Shown here one piece after another: positions 10,019 through 63,685 of a DNA stretch of 64,000 bases. The stretch's first letter is position 1. The number at the start of each line of letters is the position of its first letter. The translations under genes were made by a program, and so were the position numbers. The notes below the pieces were generated by a model that was given only the letters and a program-made list of their open reading frames with translations, was not told where the DNA came from and made no database searches. Source of the stretch: an uncultured Desulfobacteraceae bacterium (GTDB lineage: Bacteria; Desulfobacterota; Desulfobacteria; Desulfobacterales; UBA11574). The stretch is from assembly GCA_964410925.1 (NCBI GenBank), contig CAYPIW010000086.1:17605-81604 (forward strand), read 5' to 3'.

Positions 10019-10070
10019 TTTTATCCTCCTAAAAATTTATGGTTTATTTCGTTATTAAAAGAGATTATCC

Positions 10071-11045: not shown

Positions 11046-11048
11046 AAC

Positions 11049-11723: not shown

Positions 11724-11735
11724 AATAAAATCTTC

Positions 11736-40033: not shown

Positions 40034-41761
40034 ATGAAACAGCGATTTCAATGTGTGGCCGGAAGCATCATTTTTTTACTGGTGCTCTGCATCCTGACTA
40101 CCGACGGATATGCGGCAGAACGCGGTATCAATGTTGTGAAGATAATCGACGCCCAGGGGCTGGAAGTCGGTTTATATCACCAAAGCCATGCTTTGGTTAT
40201 CGGTGTCAGTAACTATAATGAAGGATGGCCTCCATTGCCGGGTGTTCAGCAGGATGTCAGGGAAGTATGCCTTGTTTTAAAGGAACATGGATTTAACGTA
40301 GAAACTGTTACCAATCCCACAAGAACGAAGTTGAACCAAGCGTTTTTAAATTTCATCAATCGGTATGGCCAAACCGTCGAAAATCGCTTGCTGTTTTATT
40401 TTGCCGGTCATGGTCATACGCGCAAGCTGGCTTACGGCGAAGATATGGGCTATATTGTGCCGGTGGATGCACCGAACCCCAGTCGTGATCCTCAGGGCTT
40501 CACCGTAAAAGCGATGGATATGCAGGAAATTGAGGTATTTGCCAAACGCATCCAGTCAAAACATGCCTTGTTCATCTTCGACAGTTGTTTTTCCGGTTCC
40601 ATTTTCTCTTTATCAAGGGCGGCCCCCGACAACATCACTTACAAAACGGCCAAGCCCGTACGCCAATTCATCACTTCCGGGAGTGCCGAGGAGAATGTCC
40701 CGGATAAAAGTGTTTTTCGCCAGCAATTCATCGCGGCTCTGAAAGGAAATGCCGATGCGGATAAGGATGGGTATGTCACGGGCATGGAACTGGGAGAATT
40801 CCTGCAGAAACAAGTAGTTAATTATTCCCATAACTGCCAGCATCCACAATATGGTAAAATTCGAAATCCTCATTTGGACAAAGGAGACTTTGTATTCGTC
40901 ATGCCCGTGCCAAAATCACTCTCCCGTCTCGTCCAAAAGCCACCCATTCCCGGTTCAACGGCTGAATCGGTCAACCCGGACACCTTTGAACTTACCTTCT
41001 GGAACTCTATTAAAGACAGTTCCAACCCGGACGATTACCTCGCCTATCTGAAACAGTATCCCAATGGCCGTTTTGCTGCATTGGCCAAAATCAGAGCAAA
41101 GCCAGCTACACAGGTAAAAGCAACCCCGGATACAAGAGTATCTCCGCAACAAATAGATACATGGTTACAGCAGGCCAAAGGGCATCTGGCCACCTCCCGG
41201 TTGACCAGCCCCAGGGGAAATAATGCCCGCGAATTATATCAGAAAGTGCTGAACATAGACCCGGACAATCCGGATGCCCGAGAGGGGCTTCACGAGATAG
41301 CCGACAAATATTTGGACTTGGCAACGCAAGCTCTTGATGAGGAAAACTTGTCCAAAGCAAAGACTTATGTGAACCGGGGTTTGGAAGTCGTAAAAGATCA
41401 TGAGGGTTTGTTGGAGTTGCAGATGGGATTAGTAACAGGGCAACCGGACTCTGATGAGCGATTCTCGCACCCTCCACCAAGTTACCCTGCACATGGTGGC
41501 ATACCCCGTAGCAATCTGAACGGTGTGTGGCAGAGCCAGGATGGAACCATCGTTTTTATAGAAGGTAACAGCTATAGGATCTCTTTAGGCAACTCTGTAA
41601 TGGATATGGGCAGCTACACCTTGCAGGGGAATCAAATTGTCGTCTATAGCATGATGGGCTTAAACAGAATCGTGAGCTACTCTTTGCAGGAAAATAAGTT
41701 AACCTTCTTTGATTATTCGAGTGGTTATCCACTGACCACTGTCTACTATCGTATGAAATAA
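40034..41761 (+). CDS. exported caspase-fold (peptidase C14) protein with TPR-like region
   Basis: Signal peptide. The caspase dyad contexts are FYFAGHGHT and IFDSCFSGS. An EF-hand-like ADADKDGYVTGMELGEF and the motif YLKQYPNGRFAALA follow. It is paralogous to 45503..47056. Confidence 0.8.
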   Translation: MKQRFQCVAGSIIFLLVLCILTTDGYAAERGINVVKIIDAQGLEVGLYHQSHALVIGVSNYNEGWPPLPGVQQDVREVCLVLKEHGFNVETVTNPTRTKLNQAFLNFINRYGQTVENRLLFYFAGHGHTRKLAYGEDMGYIVPVDAPNPSRDPQGFTVKAMDMQEIEVFAKRIQSKHALFIFDSCFSGSIFSLSRAAPDNITYKTAKPVRQFITSGSAEENVPDKSVFRQQFIAALKGNADADKDGYVTGMELGEFLQKQVVNYSHNCQHPQYGKIRNPHLDKGDFVFVMPVPKSLSRLVQKPPIPGSTAESVNPDTFELTFWNSIKDSSNPDDYLAYLKQYPNGRFAALAKIRAKPATQVKATPDTRVSPQQIDTWLQQAKGHLATSRLTSPRGNNARELYQKVLNIDPDNPDAREGLHEIADKYLDLATQALDEENLSKAKTYVNRGLEVVKDHEGLLELQMGLVTGQPDSDERFSHPPPSYPAHGGIPRSNLNGVWQSQDGTIVFIEGNSYRISLGNSVMDMGSYTLQGNQIVVYSMMGLNRIVSYSLQENKLTFFDYSSGYPLTTVYYRMK

Positions 41762-41846
41762 AGGAACAAAACTTGACCGGAAAACTTTCTCAAGCTCTTC
41801 TTAACAGGACCCGCTATTCCTGATTCCATAGAATAGGGAGTTAAGC

Positions 41847-43331
41847 GTGCAACCCGTTAAAGCCGATCGCAAACTGACAGTGTTACTCTTCTCTCTATGG
41901 TTTGTCTTCTCTCTATGGTTTGTCTTCTCAGGCTGTGTTCACTCATTCAAGGCCTTACCTGATGGTATTGATTACCAAAGCAAAGGATATTGTGCTGGTG
42001 CCGGGGATATAGAATTCCTCGTGGATTTAACGTATAAAAATACTCTTGGAAACACCTTACATGAACAGGAAATTTTTGACACGATTTTTAATCTGATTGA
42101 TAACGCCCGCAAGTACATTCTAATTGACATGTTTCTCTTCAATTCATATCAGGGCAAGGCAGAAAAAGCTTACCGCAGGCTTTGTTTTGAGCTCATGACC
42201 CGACTCGTAGAGAAGAAAAAACTGATTCCGTCGATAAAAATAGACTTTATCACCGATCCGGTGAATAATGTGTATGGCGGGGTAAAATCCAAAGAGATCG
42301 AATTAATGAGGGAAGCCGGAATCAATGTTATCTACACGGATCTTAAAAAATTACGTGACAGCAACCTGTTGTATTCCCCCATTTGGAGAATATTCATACA
42401 ATGGTTTGGCAACTCCGACAGCGGGGGTATTTTCAAACATCCTTTCAGCGAAAATGAGCCGGGCGTAACGCTAAGATCATACCTGGCTCTCTTGAATTAC
42501 AAGGCAAATCACCGGAAGGTTGTTTTGACGGATGACAGGGAACAGTGGACAAGTGTCATTACCTCCGCCAATCCCCACGACGGAAGCTCAGCTCACTCCA
42601 ATATTGCCTTGAAGATTACCGGCGACTTTTGTCGGGAGGTCTATGTTGCCGAAAAATCGATTGCCGCATTCTCCCGTGGAAAATTACATGATGTTGTCTT
42701 TGAATATGAGGATAGTGCAAATCCCGTTCAAACCAATTGTGTGTATTTATTCCTGGTGACCGAAAAAAAGATTCAAGACGAACTGATTCGACAGCTCGAG
42801 GGCCTCGGACCGGGTGACCGTGTTCTCATGGCAGTGTTTTACCTCTCGGACAGAGATATTATAAAAGCTTTGTTGAAGGCTGCCCAAGCCGGCGCGGAGG
42901 TAAAAATCATTCTTGACCCGAGCAAGGATGCGTTCGGCCGTGAGAAAAACGGCATTCCCAATCAGCCTGTGGCCTGTGAATTGATGAAAAAATCATGCAG
43001 CAAGATAAAGATCAGGTGGTACCATACCCATGGGGAGCAGTTTCACACCAAACTCACTCTGGTTGAAAAACAGAACGGTAGCGCTGTGGCTCTATTAGGA
43101 TCGGCGAATCTGACGAGAAAAAACATCGAAAATTTCAATCTGGAATTAAATGTCAAGGTCCTCGGAACTTCGTCAGCAGAAGTTATCCGGGAGATAAAGC
43201 AATATCATGATAGAGTCTGGCACAACAAGGGGGGACATTATACCGTTGATTATGAGTTCTATGAGGATAGATCCTTGAGCAAAACCTTTTTATACCGATT
43301 ATATGAATCTACGGGTATCTCCACTTTCTGA
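41847..43331 (+). CDS. phospholipase D-family (HKD) protein, membrane-anchored
   Basis: Two HKD-type motifs are present: HRKVVLTDD...SANPHDGS and HTKLTLVE...GSANLT. There is an N-terminal TM segment. Confidence 0.75.
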   Translation: MQPVKADRKLTVLLFSLWFVFSLWFVFSGCVHSFKALPDGIDYQSKGYCAGAGDIEFLVDLTYKNTLGNTLHEQEIFDTIFNLIDNARKYILIDMFLFNSYQGKAEKAYRRLCFELMTRLVEKKKLIPSIKIDFITDPVNNVYGGVKSKEIELMREAGINVIYTDLKKLRDSNLLYSPIWRIFIQWFGNSDSGGIFKHPFSENEPGVTLRSYLALLNYKANHRKVVLTDDREQWTSVITSANPHDGSSAHSNIALKITGDFCREVYVAEKSIAAFSRGKLHDVVFEYEDSANPVQTNCVYLFLVTEKKIQDELIRQLEGLGPGDRVLMAVFYLSDRDIIKALLKAAQAGAEVKIILDPSKDAFGREKNGIPNQPVACELMKKSCSKIKIRWYHTHGEQFHTKLTLVEKQNGSAVALLGSANLTRKNIENFNLELNVKVLGTSSAEVIREIKQYHDRVWHNKGGHYTVDYEFYEDRSLSKTFLYRLYESTGISTF

Positions 43332-43388
43332 AAATTGCACTTTACCATCATAATTAATCCAACCGCCTGAAAAATACTTATACGATCG

Positions 43389-44600
43389 GTGACTGTCAAC
43401 GATACTGCAGGTTTTTTGCAGGAGGCAATAATGGTAAACTTTTTACGGAAAAACCTGTCTTTCCTGGCAAATAACCCAATGTTCAAGGGGTTGTCCAATG
43501 ACCAGCTTGAAGAGGTCATCCAAGTGCTGGAAGAAGTGCATGTCAAGGCAGGAGAAATAATAACTATGGAGGGAAATCCCGCATCAGAACTCTATTTCAT
43601 AAAAAGTGGTACCGCAGAAGTTTTTAAGAAAGAACCCGGGATTGATTATGAACATCGGCTGTCAGCACTGTCACCGGGCGACAGCATCGGTGAAATGCCG
43701 GTTCTGGATTGCAAACCTCGTTCGGCTTCTGTCCGGGCGGTTTCGGATTGTTCCCTTTTACTGCTTAAAAATGACAAACTACAATCCCTTTCAGCGGCCG
43801 AAGAATCCGCCTATTCCAAGATCAAAAGCAATCTGAGTTGTGAAATGAGTGAGCGCTTACGTCAGACCAACGAAATGACGGTACGTTCCTTACGAATACA
43901 GCTGGCCGAAGAAAAATCCAGAGTCTCTATGGGAATTCTCATCTGCATGCTGCTGGTGGGAATATGTTTGTATGTGTTCTCTCTACAGGTTATTGCATCT
44001 TGGGCCAAGGCGGCGTCAACAACTACGGTAGTTAGCGTAAACATTATCTTCCTGTTTGCGGCAATGTCTTTTTTTGTTATTAAAAAAGGTGGTTATCCCT
44101 TTAGTATGTACGGTCTCACTACGGATAACTGGCGCCAATCGGTGATGGAGTCTATTCTGTTTCTGGTCCCTATTCTACTATTCTTATACGTTCTGAAATG
44201 GGTTTACCTGACCCGGCTCTCCGGCATGCAGGAATATCCGTTGATATCCCTGGGACAACATTTAAAACTAAGCAAAATCGGCCTCATCATCACTTGTTTA
44301 GCCTATTCGCTGTTCGCCCCTGTGCAGGAATTTATCGCCAGGGGATGCTTTCAATCTTCCTTTCAAAATTTCCTGACAGGCAAATATAGAACTTTGACTG
44401 CCATTGTTATTTCAAATCTTATGTTCAGTATGACCCATCTTCGCATCTCCATCAGTTTTGCTCTGGTAGCCTTTATTCCCGGACTTTTCTGGGGGTGGCA
44501 ATATGGACGTCATAAAACGCTCATCGGAATTTCAATTTCACATATTATCATCGGCCTATCCGCTTCTATTTTCATTGGGTTCCCGGGAGTTTTATCATAA
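43389..44600 (+). CDS. cyclic-nucleotide-binding domain fused to a CPBP (CAAX/Abi) intramembrane protease domain
   Basis: The cNMP-binding beta-roll is NPASELYFIKSGTAEV...GDSIGEMPVLDCKPRSASVRA. About 6 TM segments follow, with CPBP-like motifs PVQEFIARG, MFSMTHL and ISISHIIIG. An alternative start is MVNFLRK at 43431. Confidence 0.65.
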   Translation: MTVNDTAGFLQEAIMVNFLRKNLSFLANNPMFKGLSNDQLEEVIQVLEEVHVKAGEIITMEGNPASELYFIKSGTAEVFKKEPGIDYEHRLSALSPGDSIGEMPVLDCKPRSASVRAVSDCSLLLLKNDKLQSLSAAEESAYSKIKSNLSCEMSERLRQTNEMTVRSLRIQLAEEKSRVSMGILICMLLVGICLYVFSLQVIASWAKAASTTTVVSVNIIFLFAAMSFFVIKKGGYPFSMYGLTTDNWRQSVMESILFLVPILLFLYVLKWVYLTRLSGMQEYPLISLGQHLKLSKIGLIITCLAYSLFAPVQEFIARGCFQSSFQNFLTGKYRTLTAIVISNLMFSMTHLRISISFALVAFIPGLFWGWQYGRHKTLIGISISHIIIGLSASIFIGFPGVLS

Positions 44601-44640
44601 AGAAATCCGTTCATAAGAATCCCGGTTACCATCGAATCTC

Positions 44641-45390
44641 CTAACGCCAGCCGCCGGGCAGTATGGTGAAGTCGGAAAATGTGACTTCAACCGGTTGCGC
44701 GCTCCAGGTTTTAACAATCATCCCAACACGATTCAGATTATCTTTGGCCGTGGTCAGAATACTACCGAGATCCTGCCATGCGTCCGCCCCGGCCAACCGA
44801 ACCCAGAACCGAAACGTGGTTCCTGTCTTTGCAACCCGAAGCAAGCCGGAGGTTCCTTCATATTTGATCAGAAACTCACCCGCGTTGTCTGGGATCTTTG
44901 CAAGATCGTAATGAGCACCAGTACAGTCATCCCGATAAGACCCGGAAATAACAACGTCATTGGTCCCGGCCGGACCAAAATAAAGGGCGTATGCAGGTTT
45001 GTCTTCGTTGCCATTCCATAAGACTATACCCACATGGCTGTTTCCAACACGTTCCGGCATCTGAAATCTGACATGGGCGATCCAGGTTTCCCGCGGCGGT
45101 GCTTCAACCGTCAACATGGGGGCCAGTCCCCGGTCGCAGTCCCAAATGTTATGTTCCCCGTTCGCCTTCATAAGCACAGTGTTACCAAGAATCTGATGCA
45201 TGGAGTCGCCCTGGGGATCACTCCACTCGAAATCGGAGAACTTTATCCCGGAAAAGACTTCCGACTCACCGTTTTCCAGCCGGGTGAAATAGGACGGCAT
45301 CCATTGCCGGATTCCTGCTACGCCCACCGCCACCTTAAAATCAGAAAAACTAACACTCACGGGATTGCCCGCCCAGGTCTTGCTAATCAT
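44641..45390 (-). CDS. beta-sandwich repeat protein, likely the detached C-terminal part of the upstream caspase gene
   Basis: 249 aa. Residues about 55-249 repeat the C-terminal extension of 45503..47056 (SDPQGDSMHQILGNTVLMKANGEHNIWDCDRGLAPMLTVEAP vs SNPQGDGMYKIDGKWIHMRANGGRNIWDCNRGQAPMLTVKAP). Confidence 0.55.
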   Translation of the reverse strand: MISKTWAGNPVSVSFSDFKVAVGVAGIRQWMPSYFTRLENGESEVFSGIKFSDFEWSDPQGDSMHQILGNTVLMKANGEHNIWDCDRGLAPMLTVEAPPRETWIAHVRFQMPERVGNSHVGIVLWNGNEDKPAYALYFGPAGTNDVVISGSYRDDCTGAHYDLAKIPDNAGEFLIKYEGTSGLLRVAKTGTTFRFWVRLAGADAWQDLGSILTTAKDNLNRVGMIVKTWSAQPVEVTFSDFTILPGGWR

Positions 45391-45502
45391 GCCGATCCGA
45401 TTGAATCCGTCTTTGACCGTTGTTAAAACAGAGCCCAGTTCCTGCCATTGTTTCTTAAAAGGTGACCTGAAGAAGAAACTGTAGGTGTCGGCATTTCGAA
45501 CC

Positions 45503-47056
45503 TCACCCAGGCTCTGTCCATGTTTGGGTTACGGGTGCTTTTACCGTCAGCATGGGCGCCTGTCCGCGATTGCAGTCCCAGATATTGCGCCCTCCGTTGG
45601 CCCGCATGTGAATCCACTTGCCATCAATTTTATACATACCGTCTCCCTGTGGATTGCTGAACTGCCAGGCATTGGCGGAGACACGGCCCTCTCCTGTTTC
45701 CTGGATAATCTTTTCTGAGGCCGAAGCCGAATCTTTTGGAGATATTGCAGATAGTTCTGCTCCTGAAATGAATAAATTACCCAGCTCTTCCTGGGCCGAG
45801 ATTTTAAAGGAAGGTTTCGTTTGAGAAAGTGCTTTTGGTGCCCATTCGTCCTGTTTGCCCCCCCCCGCTTCAGAGATTTCCTGAGCGGACGATATTTGTA
45901 AGGGAATTGCCTGTTCTTCGCTCTTTACCTCCGGCGCCACAACTTTTCGTTTTTCTTTAAGATCGCCAGTTTTCCGTGCATTGAGAGACTCGATCTTTTT
46001 ATGTGCAACGGCCGCAAAATTACCATTGGGATATTTTTGAAGGTAGCCCTCAAAATCAGCGGGGCTTTCACTGGCAGCCACCGATGCCCAGTAAGTTATT
46101 TCGACCATGGCGTCCTCACCGGTTGGAACCACGGAAGACAGACGTGCCGTTTCACTTTCCGGCGCCAGGTGGCCGGGCAAAAGAAAAACAAAGTCGCCCC
46201 GGTCAAAATCAGGGTCACGGAGCTTACCGTAGCGGGGGGTTTGGGCCTGCTCCGTTAAATTTGTGATCCGGTCGGAGAGATACATGCCCATCTCACTGGC
46301 GGTAAGGTAGCCGTCTCTGTTGGCATCGGCCCGCTCTTCGCCCCGTATTCCGCGCAGGAACAACTTTCGAAACGCACCGTCGTCGCTAACGGTTTGATTG
46401 GCGTCACCCGAACTGAGAAACTGGCGGACAGGCAGGGTAGTTGCCCGGGTAATCGAGGCCGGAACGGCTCCGGCACGGGCTTCAGAAATGGTGCCAGCAA
46501 AACACCTGTCGAAAATGGCGAATACATGTTTGGATTCTGCCAGCCGCATGAACCCGGCAAAGTCACGCATATGGATTGCTTTCAACTTAAACTCCGGTGA
46601 GATCGGTTGCGGTGCATCGACCGGAACCAGAAAGCCTTCACCCTTGATGGTGTGTCCATGGCCGGCAAACCAAAGAAACAGCCTGGCCTCCGGATCGGAC
46701 CCCTTGATCGCAAAAAAATTCTTCAGGCTTTGTTGAAGTTCATTTGATTTAAGATCTTTCTTGAATATAACCTCAAATCCGCGGTTCTCCAATTCGGTTG
46801 CCACCTCACGGGCATCTGATACGGCATTATGAAGCGGAGGCCATCCGCTCGTATACGTATCGATACCGATAACCAACGCATAGCTTTTATCATAGAGTTT
46901 AAGCGTCTCGGTCACCGGGGCGCTGATGCTATCCTCCGCTCGGATTTTTACGATGATCCCCCGGTCTTGAGCATGAGCAGCCCGAAAGCCGATAGAGGCG
47001 ATCCATACAACCATGGTCAATAACAAGCCAACTCTGTTTAAACTCAACATCTGCAT
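45503..47056 (-). CDS. exported caspase-fold (peptidase C14) protein, C-terminal domain truncated
   Basis: Signal peptide. The dyad contexts are LWFAGHGHT and IFDRCFAGT. ADANRDGYLTASEMGMY and YLQKYPNGNFAAVA follow. The frame ends inside a beta-sandwich repeat. The start is placed at MQMLSL. Confidence 0.75.
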   Translation of the reverse strand: MQMLSLNRVGLLLTMVVWIASIGFRAAHAQDRGIIVKIRAEDSISAPVTETLKLYDKSYALVIGIDTYTSGWPPLHNAVSDAREVATELENRGFEVIFKKDLKSNELQQSLKNFFAIKGSDPEARLFLWFAGHGHTIKGEGFLVPVDAPQPISPEFKLKAIHMRDFAGFMRLAESKHVFAIFDRCFAGTISEARAGAVPASITRATTLPVRQFLSSGDANQTVSDDGAFRKLFLRGIRGEERADANRDGYLTASEMGMYLSDRITNLTEQAQTPRYGKLRDPDFDRGDFVFLLPGHLAPESETARLSSVVPTGEDAMVEITYWASVAASESPADFEGYLQKYPNGNFAAVAHKKIESLNARKTGDLKEKRKVVAPEVKSEEQAIPLQISSAQEISEAGGGKQDEWAPKALSQTKPSFKISAQEELGNLFISGAELSAISPKDSASASEKIIQETGEGRVSANAWQFSNPQGDGMYKIDGKWIHMRANGGRNIWDCNRGQAPMLTVKAPVTQTWTEPG

Positions 47057-47361
47057 CCTCCCTGGTTGCGGCCTTCTCAACGGTTTCTTATTACGGCAAA
47101 GCTCTGCCAAATATCCTAACCATATATAAAAGAACCTGCTTAAATATGGAAAAAAGTCAAGCGGTTTTGATTAAATTAAACCGGGGGAAAAAATATTTTC
47201 AGGCCACTTGATTACAATTATAAAATGTATTCTTTATTGACGTTTAAATATTAGATGATGTAGATTGTTTTTATGATATCGTGCTGGTATTCATATCGCG
47301 TAATTTGCTGATATCATACTATATTTATACAGAAAATCCTGCAGGAAACAAGGCGTATCAA

Positions 47362-48711
47362 ATGAAGGATGGGTCTGTTTTAAGAAAACTCTGTCAAGAG
47401 TATGGCAATACTGTATCCTGGACGGTGCCGGCCGCTCTTTTCATCCTCATTTTCATGTCTCTAAATACACTTGCCGCTTCCGGCGAAATCACCGGATCGG
47501 ATCTTTTGAAAAAATACGCACCTGTTTTATACTTCCATCCCGAAGAAAAAGTGTATCCCTGGGGAATCAACAGCATGCTATATAATGCCGATTTGAAAAA
47601 GATGAGAAATAAACGGACAGTTCCTATGCCGGTTGGCTCTAAAGATCTATTATCCAATAACAGTGATAAGCTCTATCTGGATATGCGAAATATAGATCCC
47701 TATCATGACGCTGTAAATTCCTTAAAAAGTATAGATACCACCTTTAAAAGATTTCCCTTTAAAGTTTGCGGAAGACGGATAGATCCCCAGAAAAATTCTA
47801 CTCATATTGTACTCCAATACTGGCTGTTCTATCCCTTTAACGACTGGCATAATGATCACGAAGGGGACTGGGAACTCCTCCAAATCCGTTATGCCAAAAA
47901 TAGACACGGACCCGACCAGGTCACGACTTCGCACCATCACAGTGGATCTGTGACCGCATGGGATAACATCAGCAAGATAAACGGAACCCATCCTAAAGTT
48001 TTCGTTGCCAAAGGAAGTCATGGAAACTGGCCGGCCGGCGGCAATCACGCCGTTGGGAAAATATGGAGAAAAGTGGGCGTTTTCCGGGATAAAACTTCGG
48101 AAAATGGAATGGTTTTGTATCCTGAAGATATTATGGACACCGTTGGTGGAAAAAAACAAAAATACATACTTGAGGACATCAGTGATATGCCGGGATCAAG
48201 CTGGATATACTGGAACGGAAGATGGGGAGATGTCAAGGTTTTATTTTGGGGCTATAGAGGCCCGGCAAGCCCGGGAGTGCAGGATAAATGGAAGGACCCC
48301 ATAAAATGGGGAAACAGTCCGGCGAAATCGTCGTTTTGGGTATACTTCGGTAGTCCGGGTTACCTGCATATCTATGACCCTCACGGCAACCATGTTGGCG
48401 TAACTGAAGAAGGCCGGAAAGATACAATCGATGAAATAGAAGGAAATATACCCGGCACTTATTTTTACGTGCCTTCTTCTGATAAGGTCCCGGAAGCATG
48501 CGCATGGATTAATACTTCAGAAAACCTTCGATTTGAAATAAAGGCCACGCGTTCAGGTAACTTCAATCTTTGTTTCGACTCTGATCCCAGGACTGCAGGA
48601 CAAAATCAGGGGGAAATTGCCATTCATGTCACATATAAGGATGTTAAGATCACGAAAGGCGGTATCCGCCAAGGCGAATGTACCGTCGGAAAAATTAAGC
48701 GAACGGCTTAA
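47362..48711 (+). CDS. Vps62/DUF946-like secreted protein
   Basis: The start is set at MKDGSV, ahead of the signal peptide. YAPVLYFHPEEKVYPW and NDHEGDWELLQIRY resemble the Vps62 family. The C-terminal part looks like a beta-sandwich. Confidence 0.45.
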   Translation: MKDGSVLRKLCQEYGNTVSWTVPAALFILIFMSLNTLAASGEITGSDLLKKYAPVLYFHPEEKVYPWGINSMLYNADLKKMRNKRTVPMPVGSKDLLSNNSDKLYLDMRNIDPYHDAVNSLKSIDTTFKRFPFKVCGRRIDPQKNSTHIVLQYWLFYPFNDWHNDHEGDWELLQIRYAKNRHGPDQVTTSHHHSGSVTAWDNISKINGTHPKVFVAKGSHGNWPAGGNHAVGKIWRKVGVFRDKTSENGMVLYPEDIMDTVGGKKQKYILEDISDMPGSSWIYWNGRWGDVKVLFWGYRGPASPGVQDKWKDPIKWGNSPAKSSFWVYFGSPGYLHIYDPHGNHVGVTEEGRKDTIDEIEGNIPGTYFYVPSSDKVPEACAWINTSENLRFEIKATRSGNFNLCFDSDPRTAGQNQGEIAIHVTYKDVKITKGGIRQGECTVGKIKRTA

Positions 48712-48718
48712 AGCCATT

Positions 48719-49204
48719 ATGACGCAGGAGCCGGATAAGATAAAAGTCTTTGGAATAAATGATTCGGTTTCAAAAGAGTTTGAATCAACGGAGCTGGAAC
48801 TTGAGGACATGATAAAAAAAAGCAGAGCATATATCCAGCAGAGGTCAAAGAAAAAAGTGGCCGAGATAATGGAAAAAGAGCTGGCGGAGCTGGAAGCTTT
48901 GCTCAAAGCCGGCGCCATGGAAAAATCGGTAAATACAAAAGACGATGATGAAGCGGATATTAAGTTAGCGGAGCTGGAACTCGAAAACATGGCTGAGATA
49001 GCCGGGTTATCGAGAAAGTTGGTAAGAAAAAAAGGCTTGGATAGAGTGGATGAAGAATTAGCAGAAATAGAAGATACACTCAAGGGGGTTAATCTGCTGG
49101 AAAGGATGTTGAAACCCATTCTTATTATGAAAATAGATTTGGACGGAAACGGAACTGTAGACGAATTCAGACAGCCGGATAGGATCTTTTGGGTTGAGGA
49201 ATAA
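48719..49204 (+). CDS. acidic coiled-coil protein with C-terminal EF-hand-like loop
   Basis: The start is placed at MTQEPDK, 8 nt after the upstream stop. Repeated ELAELE/ELAEIE heptads are followed by DLDGNGTVDEF. The track ORF start at 48617 would overlap the upstream gene. Confidence 0.4.
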   Translation: MTQEPDKIKVFGINDSVSKEFESTELELEDMIKKSRAYIQQRSKKKVAEIMEKELAELEALLKAGAMEKSVNTKDDDEADIKLAELELENMAEIAGLSRKLVRKKGLDRVDEELAEIEDTLKGVNLLERMLKPILIMKIDLDGNGTVDEFRQPDRIFWVEE

Positions 49205-49262
49205 AAAAAGCAATCTTTAACAGCGAATTTTGAAAATATGATCTGTTTGAAAGGGGCATATT

Positions 49263-50744
49263 TTGTTTGATACTGTTTTTTGGCAAATCCTCATTGCTGT
49301 GGTTTTACTCAGCGGATACGTTATTATATCCAAACGGTTCCGGGAAATACCCGACATTCCCATCGGGCTTATCATCCTTTATCTGATTACACGTATCATC
49401 CTATCGATTACCCGCAATCTGAGATGGACGGCGCATTGGGCACCATGGATTCACCTTGCGTCCTTTGTTATTCTATCCTGGGCAGTCGCCCGGTTAACTT
49501 TTTTTCTTTTTGTCGAGTTGCCTCTCCGCCTGAGAAAAAAAAAAGAGCTTCCCATTATTACCCGTGACCTTATACTCATTACCTGTTATGCAATCCTTTT
49601 TTTTATTGTGCTTCGCTTTAAAAGTAATATTAATCTTACCGGCATACTCACAACCTCAGCGGTTTTGACCGTTGTCGTGGGTTTTGCTGCCCAGACAACA
49701 TTGAGCAGCCTTATTTCCGGTCTTTTGCTGCAAATCGAACGTCCTTTTGCATTGGGAGATTGGATTAAACTTGGGGAAAATTGCGGCCAGGTGATCGGTA
49801 TTACCTGGAAATCCACGCGACTGCTTACCCGTCAAGATGTTTTGGTTTATATCCCCAACGCAGAAATAACCAATAAAAGCTTTTTGAATTATTCGAAACC
49901 CACTCGAAGGATTGTCTCTCGAATGAACATCGGGTTAGAATACGGAGCACCCCCCAACACGGTTCGGAAAGTTGTTTTAGAAATCATAAACCAGCATCCC
50001 CAGGTTTTGGAAATACCTTCGCCGGAAATTTATCTTGTCAGTTTCGATGATTTTGCCATTACCTATGAAATTCGATTTTACCATAATAATTTTGCCGATG
50101 AACGTAGAATCAAGTCCGACATAAATACGAAACTCTGGTATGCGCTTCGTCGCAACAACATCAAAATTCCCTTTCCAATCCGCGATGTTCATCACAGCCA
50201 CATAGAAAGGCGCTTTCATGCCAAAAAATTGGCTGCACAAAGAAGTTCTTTTGATATTGAAGGATTGCTTAAGCGCGTCTCGATTTTTTCATCCCTGTCC
50301 GAAGAACTCCTGACCCGGATCGCAGAACGTTCGGAAATTATCGATTATGGTTCCGGAGAATTCATTGTTCGTCAGGATGATCAAGGAGATTCCCTTTATA
50401 TCATTCGCTCGGGGTTATGCGGGGTTTACATCAGAAAACATGGAAAGCAGGAGAAAAGAATTGCAACCATTGACACCGGCGGATTTTTTGGCGAGATGAG
50501 CCTTTTGACCGGCGAACCGCATACTGCCACGGTACAGGCCGTGGAAGATACCTCGGTTATCATAATTGACAAGGAAAATTTCTCTAATATTTTAACCGAA
50601 AATCCTTCTATTTCTGTCCAGCTGGGTGAGATCCTGGCCGAACGACAGAATGAGCTGGCCGAGGAAGCCGGCCGGATCGTCGCAGCCTCTGCTTCCTCCA
50701 CCAGCATGATTGCCAAAATCAAGTCGTTTTTTCGAATCGACTGA
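49263..50744 (+). CDS. MscS-family mechanosensitive channel with C-terminal cNMP-binding domain
   Basis: TTG start. The MscS core is LSSLISGLLLQIERPFALGDWIKL...VIGITWKSTRL. The cNMP domain is FIVRQDDQGDSLYIIRSG...FFGEMSLLTGEPHTATVQA. Confidence 0.8.
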   Translation: MFDTVFWQILIAVVLLSGYVIISKRFREIPDIPIGLIILYLITRIILSITRNLRWTAHWAPWIHLASFVILSWAVARLTFFLFVELPLRLRKKKELPIITRDLILITCYAILFFIVLRFKSNINLTGILTTSAVLTVVVGFAAQTTLSSLISGLLLQIERPFALGDWIKLGENCGQVIGITWKSTRLLTRQDVLVYIPNAEITNKSFLNYSKPTRRIVSRMNIGLEYGAPPNTVRKVVLEIINQHPQVLEIPSPEIYLVSFDDFAITYEIRFYHNNFADERRIKSDINTKLWYALRRNNIKIPFPIRDVHHSHIERRFHAKKLAAQRSSFDIEGLLKRVSIFSSLSEELLTRIAERSEIIDYGSGEFIVRQDDQGDSLYIIRSGLCGVYIRKHGKQEKRIATIDTGGFFGEMSLLTGEPHTATVQAVEDTSVIIIDKENFSNILTENPSISVQLGEILAERQNELAEEAGRIVAASASSTSMIAKIKSFFRID

Positions 50745-50823
50745 GCAGTCGATGTTACGTTCTGATTGAAGAACCATTAACACTTTTATATTATTTTTTT
50801 AGCGAAAAACACAGGAACGACTC

Positions 50824-51867
50824 ATGACGGATCATCATAACCCCGCATCAAATGTATCTGCGAACCCCACCGACACGCTAAAGACATGTCTTGAAGTTGG
50901 CAAATTATTAACTTCGACGTTGAATCTGCAGGAAATTCTGGAACTGATTATGCTTAAGGTCAGTCAACTCATCAGAGCACAGAACTGGTCGTTACTTTTA
51001 AAAAATGAAGAATCCGGCGAACTGACCTTTGAAATTGTAGTGGGTCTTAAGCAGGAGTTATTTAATGGATTATATCTGTCGCCAGGCGAAGGGATAGCCC
51101 CCCATGTCGCAGAAACCGGCAAAGCAGTATTCATACCGGATGTTAATGATTCCCCCCTGTTCAACAGAAAGGTTGATCTTCATACCGGCTTTATCACCCG
51201 GTCGGTAATTTGTCTGCCACTTATTTTCCGTGGAAAGAGTCTGGGAGTTATTGAAATCGTCAATGTCAGGGACATGAAGATTTTTGAATTAGAGGATTTC
51301 CCCATTTTAACCATCCTCACGGATTATGCGGCAATCGCAATCGAAAATTCCCGGTATGTCGATAAAATCAGGAAAATGAGTATAATGGATGAGTATACAG
51401 GCCTGTATAACTCCCGTTTTCTCCACCAGATATTAGATGAATTTTTCAGTAAAACAGATCAAAAAACACAACTTTCCGTCGTTTTTATGGACATTGATAA
51501 TTTTAAATCCATTGTGGACAAATACGGCCATCTCCTTGGAACCAAATTATTAAAAGAAATCGGTATAACCATCACAAGCAATCTTTGGAAAGAGGATATT
51601 CTGATAAAATACGGCGGGGATGAATATATAATCATCCTTCCCGGCAGAAGTAAACCCGAGGCGGTAAAACACTGTGAAAACATCCTCTTTGCGATCAACG
51701 AGTCAACCTATCTGAAATCAGAAGCAGAGCCCGCCAGAATTACGGCAAGTTTTGGAATTGCAACTTATCCCGAGGATGCAGAGACCAAAAAGGAGGTATT
51801 GATTTTAGCCGATAATGCTTTATTTAAAATTAAAAACTCAACAAAAAACAGTGTGGGTACGGCCTAA
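50824..51867 (+). CDS. GAF-GGDEF diguanylate cyclase-like protein
   Basis: GAF domain followed by a GGDEF domain (DEYTGLYNSRF, FMDIDNFKSIVDKYGH). The active-site motif reads GGDEY rather than GGDEF. Confidence 0.8.
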   Translation: MTDHHNPASNVSANPTDTLKTCLEVGKLLTSTLNLQEILELIMLKVSQLIRAQNWSLLLKNEESGELTFEIVVGLKQELFNGLYLSPGEGIAPHVAETGKAVFIPDVNDSPLFNRKVDLHTGFITRSVICLPLIFRGKSLGVIEIVNVRDMKIFELEDFPILTILTDYAAIAIENSRYVDKIRKMSIMDEYTGLYNSRFLHQILDEFFSKTDQKTQLSVVFMDIDNFKSIVDKYGHLLGTKLLKEIGITITSNLWKEDILIKYGGDEYIIILPGRSKPEAVKHCENILFAINESTYLKSEAEPARITASFGIATYPEDAETKKEVLILADNALFKIKNSTKNSVGTA

Positions 51868-51915
51868 ATCTGGGAGGAATGATCGATTTGACACAATACA
51901 ATAGAAGGAAAACCC

Positions 51916-52251
51916 ATGTTTAAGTTTTATTCCAAATTGTGGCGCGGTGAACTGAAACTGGCGCATACGTTCTGGATAGCGAATGTTGCGGTATGGCTCG
52001 CATGCATGTTTTTCTTTCATCTATGATCCAAGGTTCTCAGTATGAGCTCAGGCCCTGTGGTGGGCATGCCTCTCGGCCTGATATTTGTCATCTATAATGC
52101 GGTGGCCCTGTCCGGAGTGATCCGCAGTTCCTGCAAAGGCGGCACAAAAAAAATCTATGGGTTCTTTACAATTCTTATTTCATTTTTGCTCTTAATACTC
52201 TCATTGTGGGTCCCGATTTATTTTTACGGAAAACCGCTGATCCGTCTTTAG
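51916..52251 (+). CDS. small membrane protein interrupted by an in-frame TGA (36 aa + 69 aa)
   Basis: The ATG at 51916 has an AAGGA ribosome-binding site. A TGA lies at 52024-52026. ORF 52042..52251 is in the same frame, and both halves are hydrophobic. Confidence 0.35.
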
Positions 52252-52752
52252 GGAACTGGAAATGCCGTGACTCATTGGATTCACTATAAACCTGATCATC
52301 TGAATTTTCCACGAGGCCCTAACCCCCGGCTCGTCCGTTTTTACTTACTTTGCTCCAGATGACAACTGAAACAGGGATAAGTAGAATTAACATGAGTATC
52401 CAGAAACAGGCCATGATTTCCTGTGGAAGAAATCTGTGGCCCGCCATGGACTCATAGACCCACTGCGAGATGGCAGGCAGGGCTGCTTTTCCATTCCTGA
52501 CGTGGGCATAGAAATGAGTGAGAAGGATATCCAGGAGTGACCTCATGAAAAAAAGAGGGATGAAAGAAATCAGAATGCAATAGAGATTATTTTATTGGAC
52601 AAGCTTGTAACCGCCTGTTATGAATAATATAAGGTGGAAAATAAATCCTTATATATACTTTCTCGGCAAAAACTCAAACAGGCGAGAAGTTGCCACCTGC
52701 AAGCTTTTTTACAACTCATTTACAATGATGCAACAGGCGGGTTTTATTACAG

Positions 52753-53958
52753 ATGAAATATTTCATTCTAATCGTTTTGTGTTTGGTGCCTTTTGGCTGT
52801 GGCCCTACATACAGACAAATTACATCCGACCCACCCGGTGCAAGCATTTATTTTGGCCGGTCAGAGGATAAATTGAAAAGAACTGCTTATGGACTGACTC
52901 CTTATAGTCATAGCGATTTCGGGTTCTTAGCCGAAGGATACTTTCAGGTGCGAAAAGACGGCTATCATGATTCAGAGCTACAATACTGTCCAGGAGGTCC
53001 AGGGAACTTCCGGTATCATTTCACGCTAGAGCCAGAGAATGCAAGTCAAACAGAAGTGGTTTCTTCCAGCAACGGTGCGGTTTTGATTGAGCCTTCTCCT
53101 CAAACACAATCCACAGACAATTTAAGGATTTCTAAAATAGAAAAAGAGTTACAGCCCATGTATTTACAGTCTCAGAAGTGGGCGGTTATCATCGGAATTT
53201 CGGAGTACAAGTATGCAGGCCGGAATGATTTGACCCATCTGATCTTTGCAGATGATGATGCGAAGGCGTTTGCGCGCCTGCTCAGAAATCTGGGATGGAA
53301 CCAAGGTCATATGAGACTGCTGGTCAATGAGGAGGCGACCCAGAGAAACATAATTATAGCTCTGGAATCATGGCTCACGAAGGCTGGCTCTGATGACCAG
53401 GTGGTGCTGTTTTGGTCCGGACATGGTTTTCCTGACCCGGAGGATCCGGAAAAAGTCTATTTTGTATGTTATGATACTGACATCTCAATTCCTGCTACCG
53501 GTTATAGAATGGACAGAGTCAGGGATGCTCTGGAAGAGAGAAGGACTCGAAACGTGGTTGTTTTTGCCGATACCTGTCATGCGGGTAAACTCATCACCCG
53601 TGGGGAAAAGGGTATATCAATTATGCCAAAGATAGATCAAATGAGTCGGGAGAACAGAATTCCGAAGGGTTGGATTTTTATGGCAGGAGCTGATACTGAC
53701 CGAAAAGCGTTTGAGCATACTTCCTGGAGAAATGGAGCCTTCACGCATTGTTTGTTGAACGCCCTCTCCGGAAAAGCTGACGGCTATATGAGTTCAGGAG
53801 CAAAAGATGGAATTGTCACAATGGGAGAGCTGCGCGCGTATATGAACAGTGTAATGCCCGATGAGACTCAGAAAGTCATCGGAGTGGCCAAAAGGCCGGT
53901 CATCAGCACAAGCACGGGGGATCCTGAAATCTGGAAGCTGTCGTTGCAAGACAAATAG
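52753..53958 (+). CDS. lipoprotein with PEGA-like domain and caspase-fold (C14) domain
   Basis: Lipobox LVPFGC and a PEGA-like ITSDPPGASIYFG...GLTPY. The caspase contexts are WAVIIGISEY, LFWSGHGFP and FADTCHAGK. Confidence 0.75.
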   Translation: MKYFILIVLCLVPFGCGPTYRQITSDPPGASIYFGRSEDKLKRTAYGLTPYSHSDFGFLAEGYFQVRKDGYHDSELQYCPGGPGNFRYHFTLEPENASQTEVVSSSNGAVLIEPSPQTQSTDNLRISKIEKELQPMYLQSQKWAVIIGISEYKYAGRNDLTHLIFADDDAKAFARLLRNLGWNQGHMRLLVNEEATQRNIIIALESWLTKAGSDDQVVLFWSGHGFPDPEDPEKVYFVCYDTDISIPATGYRMDRVRDALEERRTRNVVVFADTCHAGKLITRGEKGISIMPKIDQMSRENRIPKGWIFMAGADTDRKAFEHTSWRNGAFTHCLLNALSGKADGYMSSGAKDGIVTMGELRAYMNSVMPDETQKVIGVAKRPVISTSTGDPEIWKLSLQDK

Positions 53959-54153
53959 GGCCCCGTCGCCATTGAAAAAATGATATCCCCGTAATTTTTA
54001 AGATCTGTCTGGTGGATTCCGACGAAAAATTCATAACCGATAATGATAATGTATATTTTACCGCATATATGTGAGCTATACGATTCATATATGGGATCAA
54101 AGCTGTACCAGCATGACCAAAATTGAAGATTTCTAAAAAGAATGCCTCAATAC

Positions 54154-55572: not shown

Positions 55573-55589
55573 GCAGCCTCCTCATCTTT

Positions 55590-58166: not shown

Positions 58167-58248
58167 CCCATAACCAGTGAATGTTAATTGATTCAGACTC
58201 GCAACAACCACATCCATGCCTGCAAATTTGTTCAGTTATCGGCAGGGA

Positions 58249-61477: not shown

Positions 61478-63685
61478 ATGATCGGAAGGCTCATGATTTT
61501 CCAGAATTTTTTTACAAGATTTAGATCATCATTTCCCGAACAATATAAAAAATGGTATTCAGGATTGGCAGTTGCTTTCCTGATCTCCTTTTTGATTGTA
61601 ATCTTGCAGCGGTTTTCCTTTATGCAAATTCTGGAGGCCAAAACTCTTGATTCCAGATTCTCAATAAATGATCCCCCTGAACAAGTATCCGAGGATATCA
61701 TTCTGGTGGGAATAGATGATTCGAGTCTGAAATATTTTTCCGACAACGGCATTTCCTGGCCCTGGCCAAGGGATTTTTATGCACACCTTTTAGGCTATTT
61801 AACGGATTCGGGCGTAAAATCCGTAATTTTTGATCTTTTATTTTACCAGCCGGATATCGATCGGGGTGAATCTGATGCAACCGAAACAGATAAAGCCTTT
61901 GCCGGTGCCATTCACGCAAACGGCACCGTCGTCCTGGCAAGCCAACTCACCCAAGAGAACCTTGGGTCTCACTTCGATCTTTCAAGATTCTATCTCCATC
62001 TCAACAAAAAAGATAGCATCACCTTGAACCCCTATAATGGCATTCTTGCTCCAATAGAATCCTTTCTCCATGCGACTCGCCATTTGGGTATCGTGAATGT
62101 GGAACCTGATGCGGACGGGATTATCCGGCGGGTCCCTTTAATATATCCGTTCAATGGCCGTTTTCTGCCGCAGATAGCGGTTAGCGCGTTTCTGTCTTCC
62201 AAAAATAAACCGGTTCCTTTGCGACTGTCATCAAAATATCTGGATATCGGCCAAACACAAGTCCCCCTCGACAATGCCGGTAACTATCTTATTCACTGGT
62301 ATGGTCGCCAAAGCACCTGCCAATTCATCCGATGTGTTCCTCTCGCGGCGGTGATTCAGTCGGCCTCTGCCGTTCAGGCGGGGGTAACGCCACAGCTTTT
62401 ACCGAATGTTTTCAAGAACAAATTCGTTATTATCGGTGTGACCGCTGCGGGGCTTATGGATTTAAAGTCCACACCTGTCTCAGACATTCATCCGGGCATG
62501 GAAATATGGGCCACAATTCTCCTCAACCTGATACGGAACGATTTTGTTAAGCACAGCAGCTTACTTCTGAACTCGTTACGGGTAATGATCGTCACTTTTG
62601 GTGTATTCCTGCTTATCACAAAAATTCCCGGCATTGCATCCCATGTTCTGGTTCTTCTCATGACGCTCCTGGTTGGGGTTGAAACGGTTTGGGCGTGGCG
62701 GTTTCATCGGCTGGCCTTAAGCTTCACCATGCCCATATGCGGGTTAATGGTATCCTATTTAGCCCATACGTCCCTTGGGTATTTCATTGAAGGGCAGGCA
62801 AAAAGAAAAATAAGCAAGGCCATGACTCGCTATCTTCACCCGGACATTGTGCAACAAATTGCACGCGACCCGGAACAGGTTAAAATGGGTGGGCAGGAGG
62901 TGGAAGCAACAGTGATGTTTTCAGATATATACGATTTTACGACTATTTCAGAAAACTTTTCGCCACATGAGCTTGTTGCCCACCTGAACCGTTATTTTTC
63001 CGATATCAGCAGCTTTATTCTTGACCACGGCGGCATGCTGGACAAATATACCGGTGACGGAATTATGGCCATTTTTGGAGCGCCGCTTCCAAGGGAGGAT
63101 CATGCCCTTCTGGCATGCCGCGCGGCACTTGCCCATAGGAATTTTAGCAGTAAACTGGGTAGCGGAAAGGAGTTGTCCGTCTCGGATCGGTTCCACAGTC
63201 GCACTCGACTCGGAATCCATTCCGGCAATATCGTTGCCGGAAATATTGGGTCCGAACGGCGAATGGACTATACCGCAATCGGAGATACCGTAAACCTGTC
63301 CGCCCGGCTGGAAGGAGTTAACAAAATTTACAAAACCAAAATCATTCTCAGCCATGCCACCTATAAACGGATTAAAAATGAGTTCATTTGCAGGGAATTG
63401 GATTTTTTGAAGGTAAAAGGGAAAACAACCCCCACCCGGATTTACGAATTAATCGCAAATCGGGAATTTTCAGACCCTGAGCAGTTTCAATGGATAGCAA
63501 ACTATCACGAGGCCCTTTCCCTCTATCGTCAGGGAAACTGGGGAAAGGCCGGCACCCTTTTTGAATCACTGGTCCATTCGGCCTGTCCCGATCCGGCCAG
63601 TGTGGTAATGTTGGAGCGTTGCGGGCATTTAATTAAAAATCCGCCCCGGCACTGGGATGGAATTATAAAGCTTGAGGTGAAATAA
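61478..63685 (+). CDS. CHASE2-sensor class III adenylate/guanylate cyclase
   Basis: The CHASE2 region is IILVGIDDSSLKYF...WPWPRDFYAHLL...IFDLLFYQPD. TM segments follow, then the cyclase core ATVMFSDIYDFTTISE...KYTGDGIMAIFGAP...GDTVNLSARLEG. Confidence 0.85.
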   Translation: MIGRLMIFQNFFTRFRSSFPEQYKKWYSGLAVAFLISFLIVILQRFSFMQILEAKTLDSRFSINDPPEQVSEDIILVGIDDSSLKYFSDNGISWPWPRDFYAHLLGYLTDSGVKSVIFDLLFYQPDIDRGESDATETDKAFAGAIHANGTVVLASQLTQENLGSHFDLSRFYLHLNKKDSITLNPYNGILAPIESFLHATRHLGIVNVEPDADGIIRRVPLIYPFNGRFLPQIAVSAFLSSKNKPVPLRLSSKYLDIGQTQVPLDNAGNYLIHWYGRQSTCQFIRCVPLAAVIQSASAVQAGVTPQLLPNVFKNKFVIIGVTAAGLMDLKSTPVSDIHPGMEIWATILLNLIRNDFVKHSSLLLNSLRVMIVTFGVFLLITKIPGIASHVLVLLMTLLVGVETVWAWRFHRLALSFTMPICGLMVSYLAHTSLGYFIEGQAKRKISKAMTRYLHPDIVQQIARDPEQVKMGGQEVEATVMFSDIYDFTTISENFSPHELVAHLNRYFSDISSFILDHGGMLDKYTGDGIMAIFGAPLPREDHALLACRAALAHRNFSSKLGSGKELSVSDRFHSRTRLGIHSGNIVAGNIGSERRMDYTAIGDTVNLSARLEGVNKIYKTKIILSHATYKRIKNEFICRELDFLKVKGKTTPTRIYELIANREFSDPEQFQWIANYHEALSLYRQGNWGKAGTLFESLVHSACPDPASVVMLERCGHLIKNPPRHWDGIIKLEVK

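Follow-up and report, generated by a model that had tools for sequence, protein, structure and literature searches.

A 64,000-nucleotide stretch of DNA from an uncultured Desulfobacteraceae bacterium (contig CAYPIW010000086.1, positions 17,605 to 81,604; hereafter the window, in whose own coordinates positions are given unless a related locus is named) contains a gene that joins a cyclic-nucleotide-binding (CNB) domain to a membrane domain of the Rce1/CPBP fold, and this CNB-CPBP fusion gene is the subject of the present analysis. We found it to belong to a large and widespread family, which is uncharacterised in the literature that we searched and whose parts, a CNB-controlled output and a CPBP fold, are each of known kinds. 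On balance, we consider it probable that this widespread inner-membrane family serves as an output of ordinary cyclic-nucleotide signalling, that the phospholipase D (PLD)-type and caspase genes lying next to it in the window are incidental, and that no defence operon is involved.

A large family with a shared domain architecture

A protein search returned 194 matches to the fusion protein, almost all of which carry both Pfam domains, and a profile of the membrane domain only, run exhaustively against 1.84 billion representatives, matched 858, 1526 and 3585 clusters at 50% identity with E-values of at most 1e-30, 1e-10 and 1e-3, respectively. The fusion, which the first-pass annotation of this DNA had thought an unusual architecture, is therefore common, with at least 858 such clusters. 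Among the 137 top representatives that lie outside our 79-sequence alignment, 110 of the 111 full-length proteins possess a CNB domain. A 265-aa CPBP paralogue with the same altered first motif (QE-type, see below), which had seemed to stand alone in one related locus (L050), was withdrawn as an exception, since every full-length homologue of it is CNB-fused; probably the gene, or its call, is truncated. Because the CNB domain is so consistently present, and because this apparently stand-alone copy has only CNB-fused relatives, the QE-type CPBP domain and the CNB domain are, on the sequences compared, one coherent and common family. A weak match to the membrane-domain profile in another locus (L026) proved spurious, as the aligned region is devoid of the conserved family motifs.

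A genome scan recovered 195 relatives in roughly ten major bacterial lineages, the closest being metagenome-assembled genomes of Desulfobacterales. Proteobacterial relatives are spread over the Alpha-, Beta- and Gammaproteobacteria, including Legionella, Coxiellaceae, Rickettsiales, Variovorax (ten of the 195 records), Rubrivivax and Caenispirillum; those in Bacteroidota include Cyclobacteriaceae and Ohtaekwangia, and the others come from Verrucomicrobiota, Lentisphaerae, Chlamydiota, Gemmatimonadota, Myxococcota, Binatia and one Paenibacillus. RefSeq names the members 'cyclic nucleotide-binding domain-containing protein', and no description of a CNB-CPBP fusion was found in the searched literature. 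Some loci hold paralogues, with two tandem copies in L018 (8832-11212), three in L050 (9977-14221) and two in L071, and a 528-aa variant bears an extra N-terminal response-regulator receiver (REC) domain (P0044, corresponding to the longer gene at 9551-11134 in L005).

Gene start and overall organisation of the fusion protein

The open reading frame (ORF) of the fusion gene reaches upstream to a GTG codon at 43389 (43389-44600, + strand), which would yield a protein of 403 aa, the length originally assigned to it. Since most homologues in the protein search have a length of 389 aa, and since an AGGAGG sequence lies immediately 5' of it, the ATG at 43431 is favoured and is probably the true start. 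The proposed architecture of a CNB domain followed by a CPBP domain is confirmed by profiles and predicted fold, whereas the length of the protein is likely 389 aa; in the same way, the 58-nt distance reported between the PLD gene and the fusion gene holds for the GTG codon but likely becomes 99 nt when measured from the ATG.

An AlphaFold2 model of the full-length protein, built from 79 homologues, reached a mean pLDDT of 87.6, and a Foldseek comparison of this model with the PDB gave matches to CNB-domain structures only. Instead of the roughly six transmembrane helices claimed at first, the model has seven, the first of which prolongs the CNB C-helix: DSSP assigns residues 127-192 to an unbroken helix leading from the CNB C-helix into membrane helix 1, and the linker within it holds a conserved RLRxTNExTV stretch in the alignment consensus.

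The sensor domain appears competent to bind a cyclic nucleotide

The N-terminal part of the protein matches PF00027 (cNMP_binding) at E 3.8e-18, with 65.7 bits against a cut-off of 27.5 bits. The AlphaFold2 model places beta strands over residues 34-113 with a helix after them, as expected of a CNB fold, and in Foldseek this part resembles the CNB domains of CRP/GlxR, PKG and MloK1 at E-values of about 1e-9. Pfam and fold thus agree on the canonical cyclic-nucleotide-binding beta-roll that had been recognised from the sequence, and the motif quoted for it is present. The phosphate-binding cassette carries the pattern G-E...R-[ST]-A as GEMPVLDCKPRSA, and its key residues are kept in 74-79 of the 79 aligned homologues (G87 in all 79, E88 in 74, R97 in 76, S/T98 in 76 and A99 in 78). 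In CNB cassettes generally, the Glu touches the ribose and the Arg touches the cyclic phosphate, and we take Glu88 and Arg97 to make these contacts in the fusion protein. Judged by these residues, the sensor looks competent to bind a cyclic nucleotide. Naming the bound nucleotide from the cassette (RSAS) was tried and given up, as the sequence is not decisive on this point; the specificity residues of partner cyclases were used instead.

The membrane domain has the Rce1/CPBP fold and an altered active site

The C-terminal domain was compared with CPBP profiles as a test set beforehand, and it passes the Pfam cut-off, matching PF02517 (Rce1-like/CPBP) at E 2.6e-11 with 44.1 bits against 22.4. 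The NCBIfam models of CPBP glutamic-type intramembrane proteases (MrtS, MrtJ and Mrt_core) match weakly, in the C-terminal half, at E 6e-8 to 1e-5 and below their equivalog cut-offs. When the membrane domain was also modelled alone with AlphaFold2 (pTM 0.85) and compared with the PDB by Foldseek, the sole meaningful match was MmRce1 (4CAD; probability 0.99-1.0, TM-score 0.56-0.60 over about 250 columns), the remaining matches, among those listed, having TM-scores of at most 0.27. Searches of the PDB with the membrane-domain sequence returned nothing at E<=10, whether as a single sequence or as a 20-sequence profile, so the link to MmRce1 is drawn from Pfam and fold. On profile and predicted fold together, the CPBP assignment holds.

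The conservation of its motifs was counted both in the 79-sequence alignment and in the 137 independent representatives (216 sequences in total). E300, R304, Q308 and H371 are invariant in both sets (79/79 and 137/137). Q299 and H336 each reach 78/79 and 137/137, with Gln at position 299 in 215 of the 216; S370 is kept in 79/79 and 135/137, and G375 in 78/79 and 136/137, with Gly in 214 of the 216. The register of motif 1 is fixed because the Arg at +5 is invariant. Set against the canonical CPBP pattern, the FxxxH motif is present, and the catalytic first Glu of EExxxR and the oxyanion residue of HxxxN/D are not. In the canonical enzymes, the catalytic water is held jointly by the His of FxxxH and the Glu that opens EExxxR, the oxyanion hole is made by HxxxN, and in MmRce1 and MrtX this first Glu and the HxxxN Asn both serve as catalytic residues (PMC11980579). 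By alignment, two of the four glutamic-protease catalytic residues are replaced throughout the family, and the replacements themselves are under very strong constraint. The motifs QEFIARG, FSMTH and SHIIIG, which had been singled out as CPBP-like, are thus all found in the sequence, but they do not make up a canonical site. Helical periodicity suggests that E300, R304 and Q308 lie on one face of a helix, like the pair formed by the second Glu and the Arg of canonical enzymes, and Q299 would sit at the cavity-facing position of the catalytic Glu.

The family therefore resembles the Rce1/CPBP proteins (MmRce1 4CAD, yeast and human Rce1, MrtX) in profile, in fold and in the order of its motifs on successive membrane helices, and it keeps, in motif 1, the Arg and the second Glu and, in motifs 2 and 3, the His of each. 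It differs from them in having Gln for the first Glu, Gly for the Asn, and Q308 as an extra invariant residue together with S370 and the GLFWGW signature, in carrying an N-terminal CNB domain attached through a continuous helix, and in that no prenylated or C-terminal sorting-signal substrate is evident.

Cyclases and putative phosphodiesterases next to the fusion gene

For the analysis of gene context, genes were called with a codon-usage caller in 80 related loci (numbered with the prefix L), with the anchors fixed by tblastn. Of the 80 loci, 12 have a class III cyclase no more than 10 kb from the fusion gene, and the other 68 have none in that range. The cyclase is on the same strand and at most 3 kb upstream in nine loci, eight of them from Bacteroidota. 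The upstream cyclases of Bacteroidota are fused to REC or PAS domains in the five that were checked, and the gene order in L045 is hybrid histidine kinase, REC-cyclase, CNB-CPBP and a conserved membrane protein of about 540 aa. In the ninth, L009 from Legionellales, the fusion gene is preceded at a distance of 14 nt by a CHASE2-cyclase, and this enzyme is a full-length homologue of the CHASE2 cyclase in the window (29% identity, E 4e-85). In class III cyclases, Lys/Asp or Lys/Thr at the substrate-defining positions denotes the adenylate type, and the adjacent cyclases have one or the other of these pairs. Those of Bacteroidota match the general Guanylate_cyc model at E 1e-51 versus 4e-18 for the Pycsar cyclase model. 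From these residues, the ligand is most likely cyclic adenosine monophosphate (cAMP), and the CHASE2 cyclase of the window is a candidate, unproven, for its source there.

In Bacteroidota, eight loci (L034, L035, L036, L045, L046, L048, L062 and L064; at about 10000-12800 in most) share a cluster of CNB-CPBP, preceded in six of them by an adenylate-type cyclase with a REC or PAS fusion, and, 0-46 nt downstream, the membrane protein of about 540 aa, which has no Pfam family and is a candidate partner or substrate.

At the other side of the gene, a metallo-beta-lactamase (MBL)-fold hydrolase follows directly downstream on the same strand in L013/L084 (Legionella maioricensis, 11323-12090), L019 (7667-8431) and L027 (11197-11970). 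It matches the Pfam families Anti-Pycsar_Apyc1 and Lactamase_B and may be a cyclic-nucleotide phosphodiesterase, although its NCBIfam support is far below the cut-off.

Gene neighbourhoods, defence genes and mobile elements

Homologues of the PLD gene and of the window-type caspases were seen near the fusion gene in just three loci, L001-L003, whose identity is 80-90% and whose synteny holds throughout, and in none of the other 77 loci; in L004-L006, at 46% identity, the immediately flanking genes are already different. We therefore rejected the PLD gene as a conserved partner, and the caspases likewise. They are lineage-specific neighbours whose adjacency gives no evidence of functional coupling, and the association that the first-pass annotation had treated as meaningful context is confined to three close relatives among the 80 loci.

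The same-strand upstream neighbours, present in 43 loci, include major facilitator superfamily (MFS) transporters (8), PD40/OmpA proteins (5), class III cyclases (4), UvrA-like proteins (3) and PLD proteins (3), and the same-strand downstream neighbours, present in 29 loci, include MBL-fold Apyc1-like hydrolases (3, in Legionella and Chlamydiae). The neighbour censuses are led by MFS transporters, acyltransferases, methyltransferases and two-component proteins, the others being diverse metabolic genes. An MFS gene lies directly upstream on the same strand in nine Burkholderiales loci (five from Variovorax and four others), of which only L044 is among the 11 of 80 loci where a PlsC-type (1-acylglycerol-3-phosphate) acyltransferase is found within 1.4 kb. 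The full set of PlsC-type loci is L005, L006, L026, L044, L051, L055, L056, L063, L073, L075 and L077.

In four loci from Verrucomicrobia (L031, L042, L043 and L049), the fusion gene is followed after 11-14 nt by the gene of a conserved 121-aa protein, which has about three hydrophobic segments, ends in a highly acidic tail and matched nothing in Pfam or NCBIfam. The gene upstream in this group is UvrA-like in L042 and encodes a protein of about 1900 aa, flagged as nSTAND/NACHT, in L043 and L049.

No copy of the fusion gene was found in the 50,697 phage records searched, and 72,556 plasmids held two full-length copies only, both carried by large replicons, one in Azospirillum lipoferum 4B and one in Legionella lytica. 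A PADLOC census of the neighbours produced scattered matches and no recurring defence system; the sole recurrent match, mad2 in four loci, equals the count of methyltransferase-domain neighbours there and is probably generic. No bacteriocin-type neighbours were seen in the window or among the top census families, small peptide genes not having been searched for. Measured against the Pycsar definition, the gene is without a dedicated adjacent PycC operon, matches effector models mainly in its CNB part and does not lie in defence islands or mobile elements.

Proposed function and alternative explanations

In the mechanism that we propose, a sensor would activate a cyclase, and the cAMP made by it would reach the CNB domain of the fusion protein, which faces the cytoplasm and, with its intact cassette, would bind the nucleotide. 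The CNB C-helix runs unbroken into membrane helix 1 of the CPBP-fold domain in the model and, because this linking helix is unbroken, ligand-induced movement could pass directly to the membrane domain, where helix motion would change the access to a buried polar cavity or its geometry. The substrate or partner is probably encoded elsewhere. Since the constellation of residues is so strictly fixed, we infer that the site has not decayed but still works, in catalysis or in the binding of a ligand. As to what this site does, we tentatively and slightly favour regulated intramembrane hydrolysis with an altered chemistry over a non-catalytic module, giving it somewhat less than an even chance. In this chemistry, the Gln amide would replace the lost Asn amide, with Glu300 or His336 as the base; soluble eqolisin (G1) glutamic peptidases work with a dyad of Gln and Glu, and their intermediate is stabilised by the amide of this Gln. 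The more specific proposal, that cAMP turns on a Gln/Glu/His re-engineered CPBP-fold enzyme, which would make the family the first case of direct gating of an intramembrane hydrolase by a second messenger, we hold to be rather doubtful. Of the ligand-gated intramembrane protease originally suggested, a ligand-controlled CPBP domain is a fair reading, while the protease part is unproven, two of the catalytic residues being replaced.

Several observations weigh against the explanation that we favour. The position taken to be the catalytic base of Rce1, MmRce1 and MrtX carries another residue here, and the sole family with a comparable pattern of QE plus two His, APH-1, is non-catalytic. A cyclase or phosphodiesterase-like gene is adjacent to the fusion gene in a minority of loci, and the cyclase cases come mostly from one clade of Bacteroidota, the number of independent associations being about 3-5. 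The Legionella MBL protein scores 25.9 bits against a cut-off of 400 in the NCBIfam cyclic-nucleotide phosphodiesterase model. Within the window, the nearest cyclase is the CHASE2 enzyme, 16.9 kb downstream of the fusion gene, in agreement with the distance of about 17 kb first noted. Finally, the AlphaFold2 model is that of a monomer.

Somewhat less probable than hydrolysis, and still a serious possibility, is a non-catalytic pseudo-protease, in which a scaffold or receptor controlled by a cyclic nucleotide monophosphate (cNMP) would bind and regulate another membrane protein in the manner of APH-1. Abx1 and SpdC, protease-independent regulators with Abi domains, are further precedents. The replacement of the first Glu of EExxxR in 215 of the 216 sequences, and of the Asn of HxxxN in 214, speaks for such a module, as do the lineage-specific membrane proteins encoded directly downstream in some clades, that of 121 aa with three helices in Verrucomicrobia and that of about 540 aa in Bacteroidota. 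APH-1, a non-catalytic subunit of gamma-secretase, keeps QExxR and two conserved intramembrane His (PMC6588880), and so shares with the fusion family a QE-type first motif and the His pair; it differs in the spacing of QExxR and in being a subunit of a eukaryotic complex, and the fusion family conserves many more polar residues. The near-invariance of seven buried polar positions plus GLFWGW across roughly ten lineages, however, goes beyond the usual needs of a scaffold interface, no partner is kept across lineages, and the 50 best Foldseek matches listed for the membrane-domain model include MmRce1 and not APH-1. A membrane-lipid module, with the fusion protein acting together with PLD and PlsC enzymes in the cNMP-controlled remodelling of membrane lipids or lipoproteins, seems improbable. 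It would account for the lipoprotein-like PLD gene on the same strand 99 nt upstream, with no terminator-like site in that gap, for the PlsC-type acyltransferases near 11 of the 80 loci in at least two lineages (Desulfobacteraceae-type relatives and Burkholderiales) and for the fatty-acid desaturases that adjoin the fusion gene in two loci, and known CPBP enzymes act on lipidated proteins (PMC11980579). These associations are nevertheless a minority and reflect in part shared ancestry within Burkholderiales, their counts are raw and uncontrolled for genome-wide gene frequency, the acyltransferases are often on the opposite strand, and the PLD gene is adjacent in one shallow lineage only.

A Pycsar-like effector is the least likely of these alternatives, and we give it very little weight. 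On this model, a cyclic nucleotide made upon infection would trigger membrane damage or target cleavage, with the PLD and caspase proteins as possible co-effectors. The PADLOC models for PycTIR and Pycsar effectors do match the fusion protein at E 7e-15 to 1.6e-10, but mainly in the CNB part (aa 23-223); the class III cyclases adjacent in some loci match PycC models weakly (E 4e-18 to 7e-29), and a giant nSTAND/NACHT protein lies upstream in two of the Verrucomicrobia loci. Against this, the fusion gene is without an adjacent cyclase both in the window and in 68 of the 80 loci, and the cyclases that are adjacent elsewhere carry REC, PAS or CHASE2 sensors, stand behind histidine kinases, have adenylate-type residues and, in Bacteroidota, fit PycC far more poorly than the general cyclase model. 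Ten Variovorax records hold the gene, five of them with a common upstream MFS gene, the PLD and caspase neighbours are not kept beyond 80%-identical relatives, and the gene is absent from the phage records searched and nearly absent from plasmids. The defence role that had been put forward as speculative is not sustained by these data, in which the fusion is common, has no phage copies, has neighbours concerned mostly with housekeeping (transport, metabolism and signalling) and, where a cyclase is adjacent, is paired with a sensor-coupled enzyme of the adenylate type. The first-pass annotation had itself named a common fusion, always in housekeeping contexts, as the pattern that would speak against it, and this is largely what was seen, with neighbours mostly of that kind. 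We do not regard the fusion gene as belonging to a phage-defence operon of the cyclase-plus-effector kind. It does share with PycTM and PycTIR the fusion of a CNB domain to a membrane or effector module and the logic of a nucleotide trigger, and differs from them in having a seven-helix CPBP fold rather than a two- or four-helix pore-former or a TIR domain, and in its housekeeping context.

An output of ordinary cyclic-nucleotide signalling, as we favour, would place the family beside CRP/GlxR, MloK1, MscS-CNB and the cAMP-regulated acetyltransferase Pat, in which a CNB sensor with the same cassette motif controls a fused output, the difference being that the output here is a membrane domain of the Rce1/CPBP fold. 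To our knowledge, few bacterial effectors of cAMP or cyclic guanosine monophosphate (cGMP) have been described beyond CRP-type regulators, and we know of no protein with an intramembrane protease fold that is directly controlled by a nucleotide second messenger. The family would thus add a membrane effector to the bacterial outputs of cAMP and cGMP; if it does prove to be a cAMP-gated hydrolase, it would be a widespread class of non-transcriptional cAMP effector that includes Legionella, Chlamydiae, Variovorax and Azospirillum. Its size and its breadth in culturable organisms make studies of ligand, mutants and substrate feasible, and its QExxxR/FxxxH/SHxxxG site bears on the general question of what a CPBP-fold protein without the catalytic Glu is, a dead enzyme or one with a different chemistry. 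For annotation, a protein with a CNB domain and a membrane domain but without an adjacent dedicated cyclase should not be called a Pycsar-like defence gene.

Features of the fusion gene and its surroundings in the window

Table 1. Positions of the fusion gene, its domains and motifs, and the neighbouring genes in the 64-kb window
Feature	Position	Strand	Evidence or remarks
CNB-CPBP fusion gene	43431..44600	+	389 aa; Pfam cNMP_binding and Rce1-like; AlphaFold2 pLDDT 87.6
Shine-Dalgarno sequence AGGAGG	43420..43425	+	Read from sequence; 5 nt ahead of ATG 43431
CNB domain (beta-roll), about aa 20-125	43488..43805	+	Pfam and Foldseek
Phosphate-binding cassette GDSIGEMPVLDCKPRSASVRA	43677..43739	+	Translation; conservation in 79 homologues
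Linker, cytoplasmic part of helix aa 127-192	43809..43925	+	DSSP on AlphaFold2 model; alignment consensus
Seven-helix Rce1/CPBP-fold membrane domain	43926..44597	+	Pfam, NCBIfam, domain-only AlphaFold2 model, 4CAD match
Motif 1, QEFIAR (QExxxR instead of EExxxR)	44325..44342	+	Alignment
Motif 2, FSMTH (FxxxH, kept)	44424..44438	+	Alignment
GLFWGW family signature, membrane helix 6	44481..44498	+	W354 and G355 in 79/79
Motif 3, SHIIIG (SHxxxG instead of HxxxN)	44538..44555	+	Alignment
PLD-superfamily gene, 494 aa	41847..43331	+	PLDc_2 E 1.7e-26; two HKD motifs; lipoprotein-like signal
HKD-type motif HRKVVLTD	42510-42533	+	PLD gene
HKD-type motif HTKLTLVE	43044-43067	+	PLD gene
Caspase (Peptidase_C14) gene	40034-41761	+	E 7e-19
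Caspase (Peptidase_C14) gene	45503-47110	-	E 9e-17
MscS channel plus CNB protein	49263-50744	+	Second CNB membrane protein in window
GAF-GGDEF diguanylate cyclase	50824-51867	+	Follows MscS-CNB gene
CHASE2 class III cyclase, Lys/Thr adenylate type	61478..63685	+	CHASE2 E 5e-50; Guanylate_cyc E 1.4e-23; DKYTGD / YTAIGDTVN

The immediate surroundings of the fusion gene are as they had been described: a co-oriented, membrane-anchored PLD-family gene of the HKD type precedes it, the PLDc_2 match, the HKD motifs and a hydrophobic signal all being seen, and convergent caspase paralogues bracket the pair, with Peptidase_C14 on both sides and on opposite strands (mutual phmmer E about 1e-71). The hydrophobic signal at the N-terminus of the PLD protein ends in a lipobox-like FSGC, and the region encoding it (41847-41940, + strand) holds a direct duplication, SLWFVF-SLWFVF, just before FSGC. 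In L001-L003, the orthologous ORFs give 513 aa from the first start codon as compared with 494 aa in the window, which may reflect a different N-terminus or start call.

A 54.7-kb JGI metagenome contig (ML8_10000385) matches the window with an identical gene order. The downstream caspase (44641-47110, - strand) is split into ORFs of 535 aa and 249 aa, and the same split is present in the JGI and Logan contigs. Its orthologues in L001-L003 are single proteins of 1103 aa that carry three repeats of about 222 aa at the C-terminus; the window copy lacks residues 513-817, and its frame shifts near 45501-45515. The split reflects either the collapse of repeats in assembly or a real deletion. Altogether three caspase genes lie at 40034, 45503 and 52753, and the products of two have a hydrophobic N-terminus that resembles a signal; in their vicinity are genes for a Vps62-like protein (47281-48711), a DUF4384 protein (54154-55572) and a GNA1162-like/beta-helix/TPR protein (55590-58217). 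The region 40034-58217 looks like an envelope 'caspase' neighbourhood. Together, the MscS-CNB protein, the diguanylate cyclase and the CHASE2 cyclase form a local concentration of nucleotide-signalling genes.

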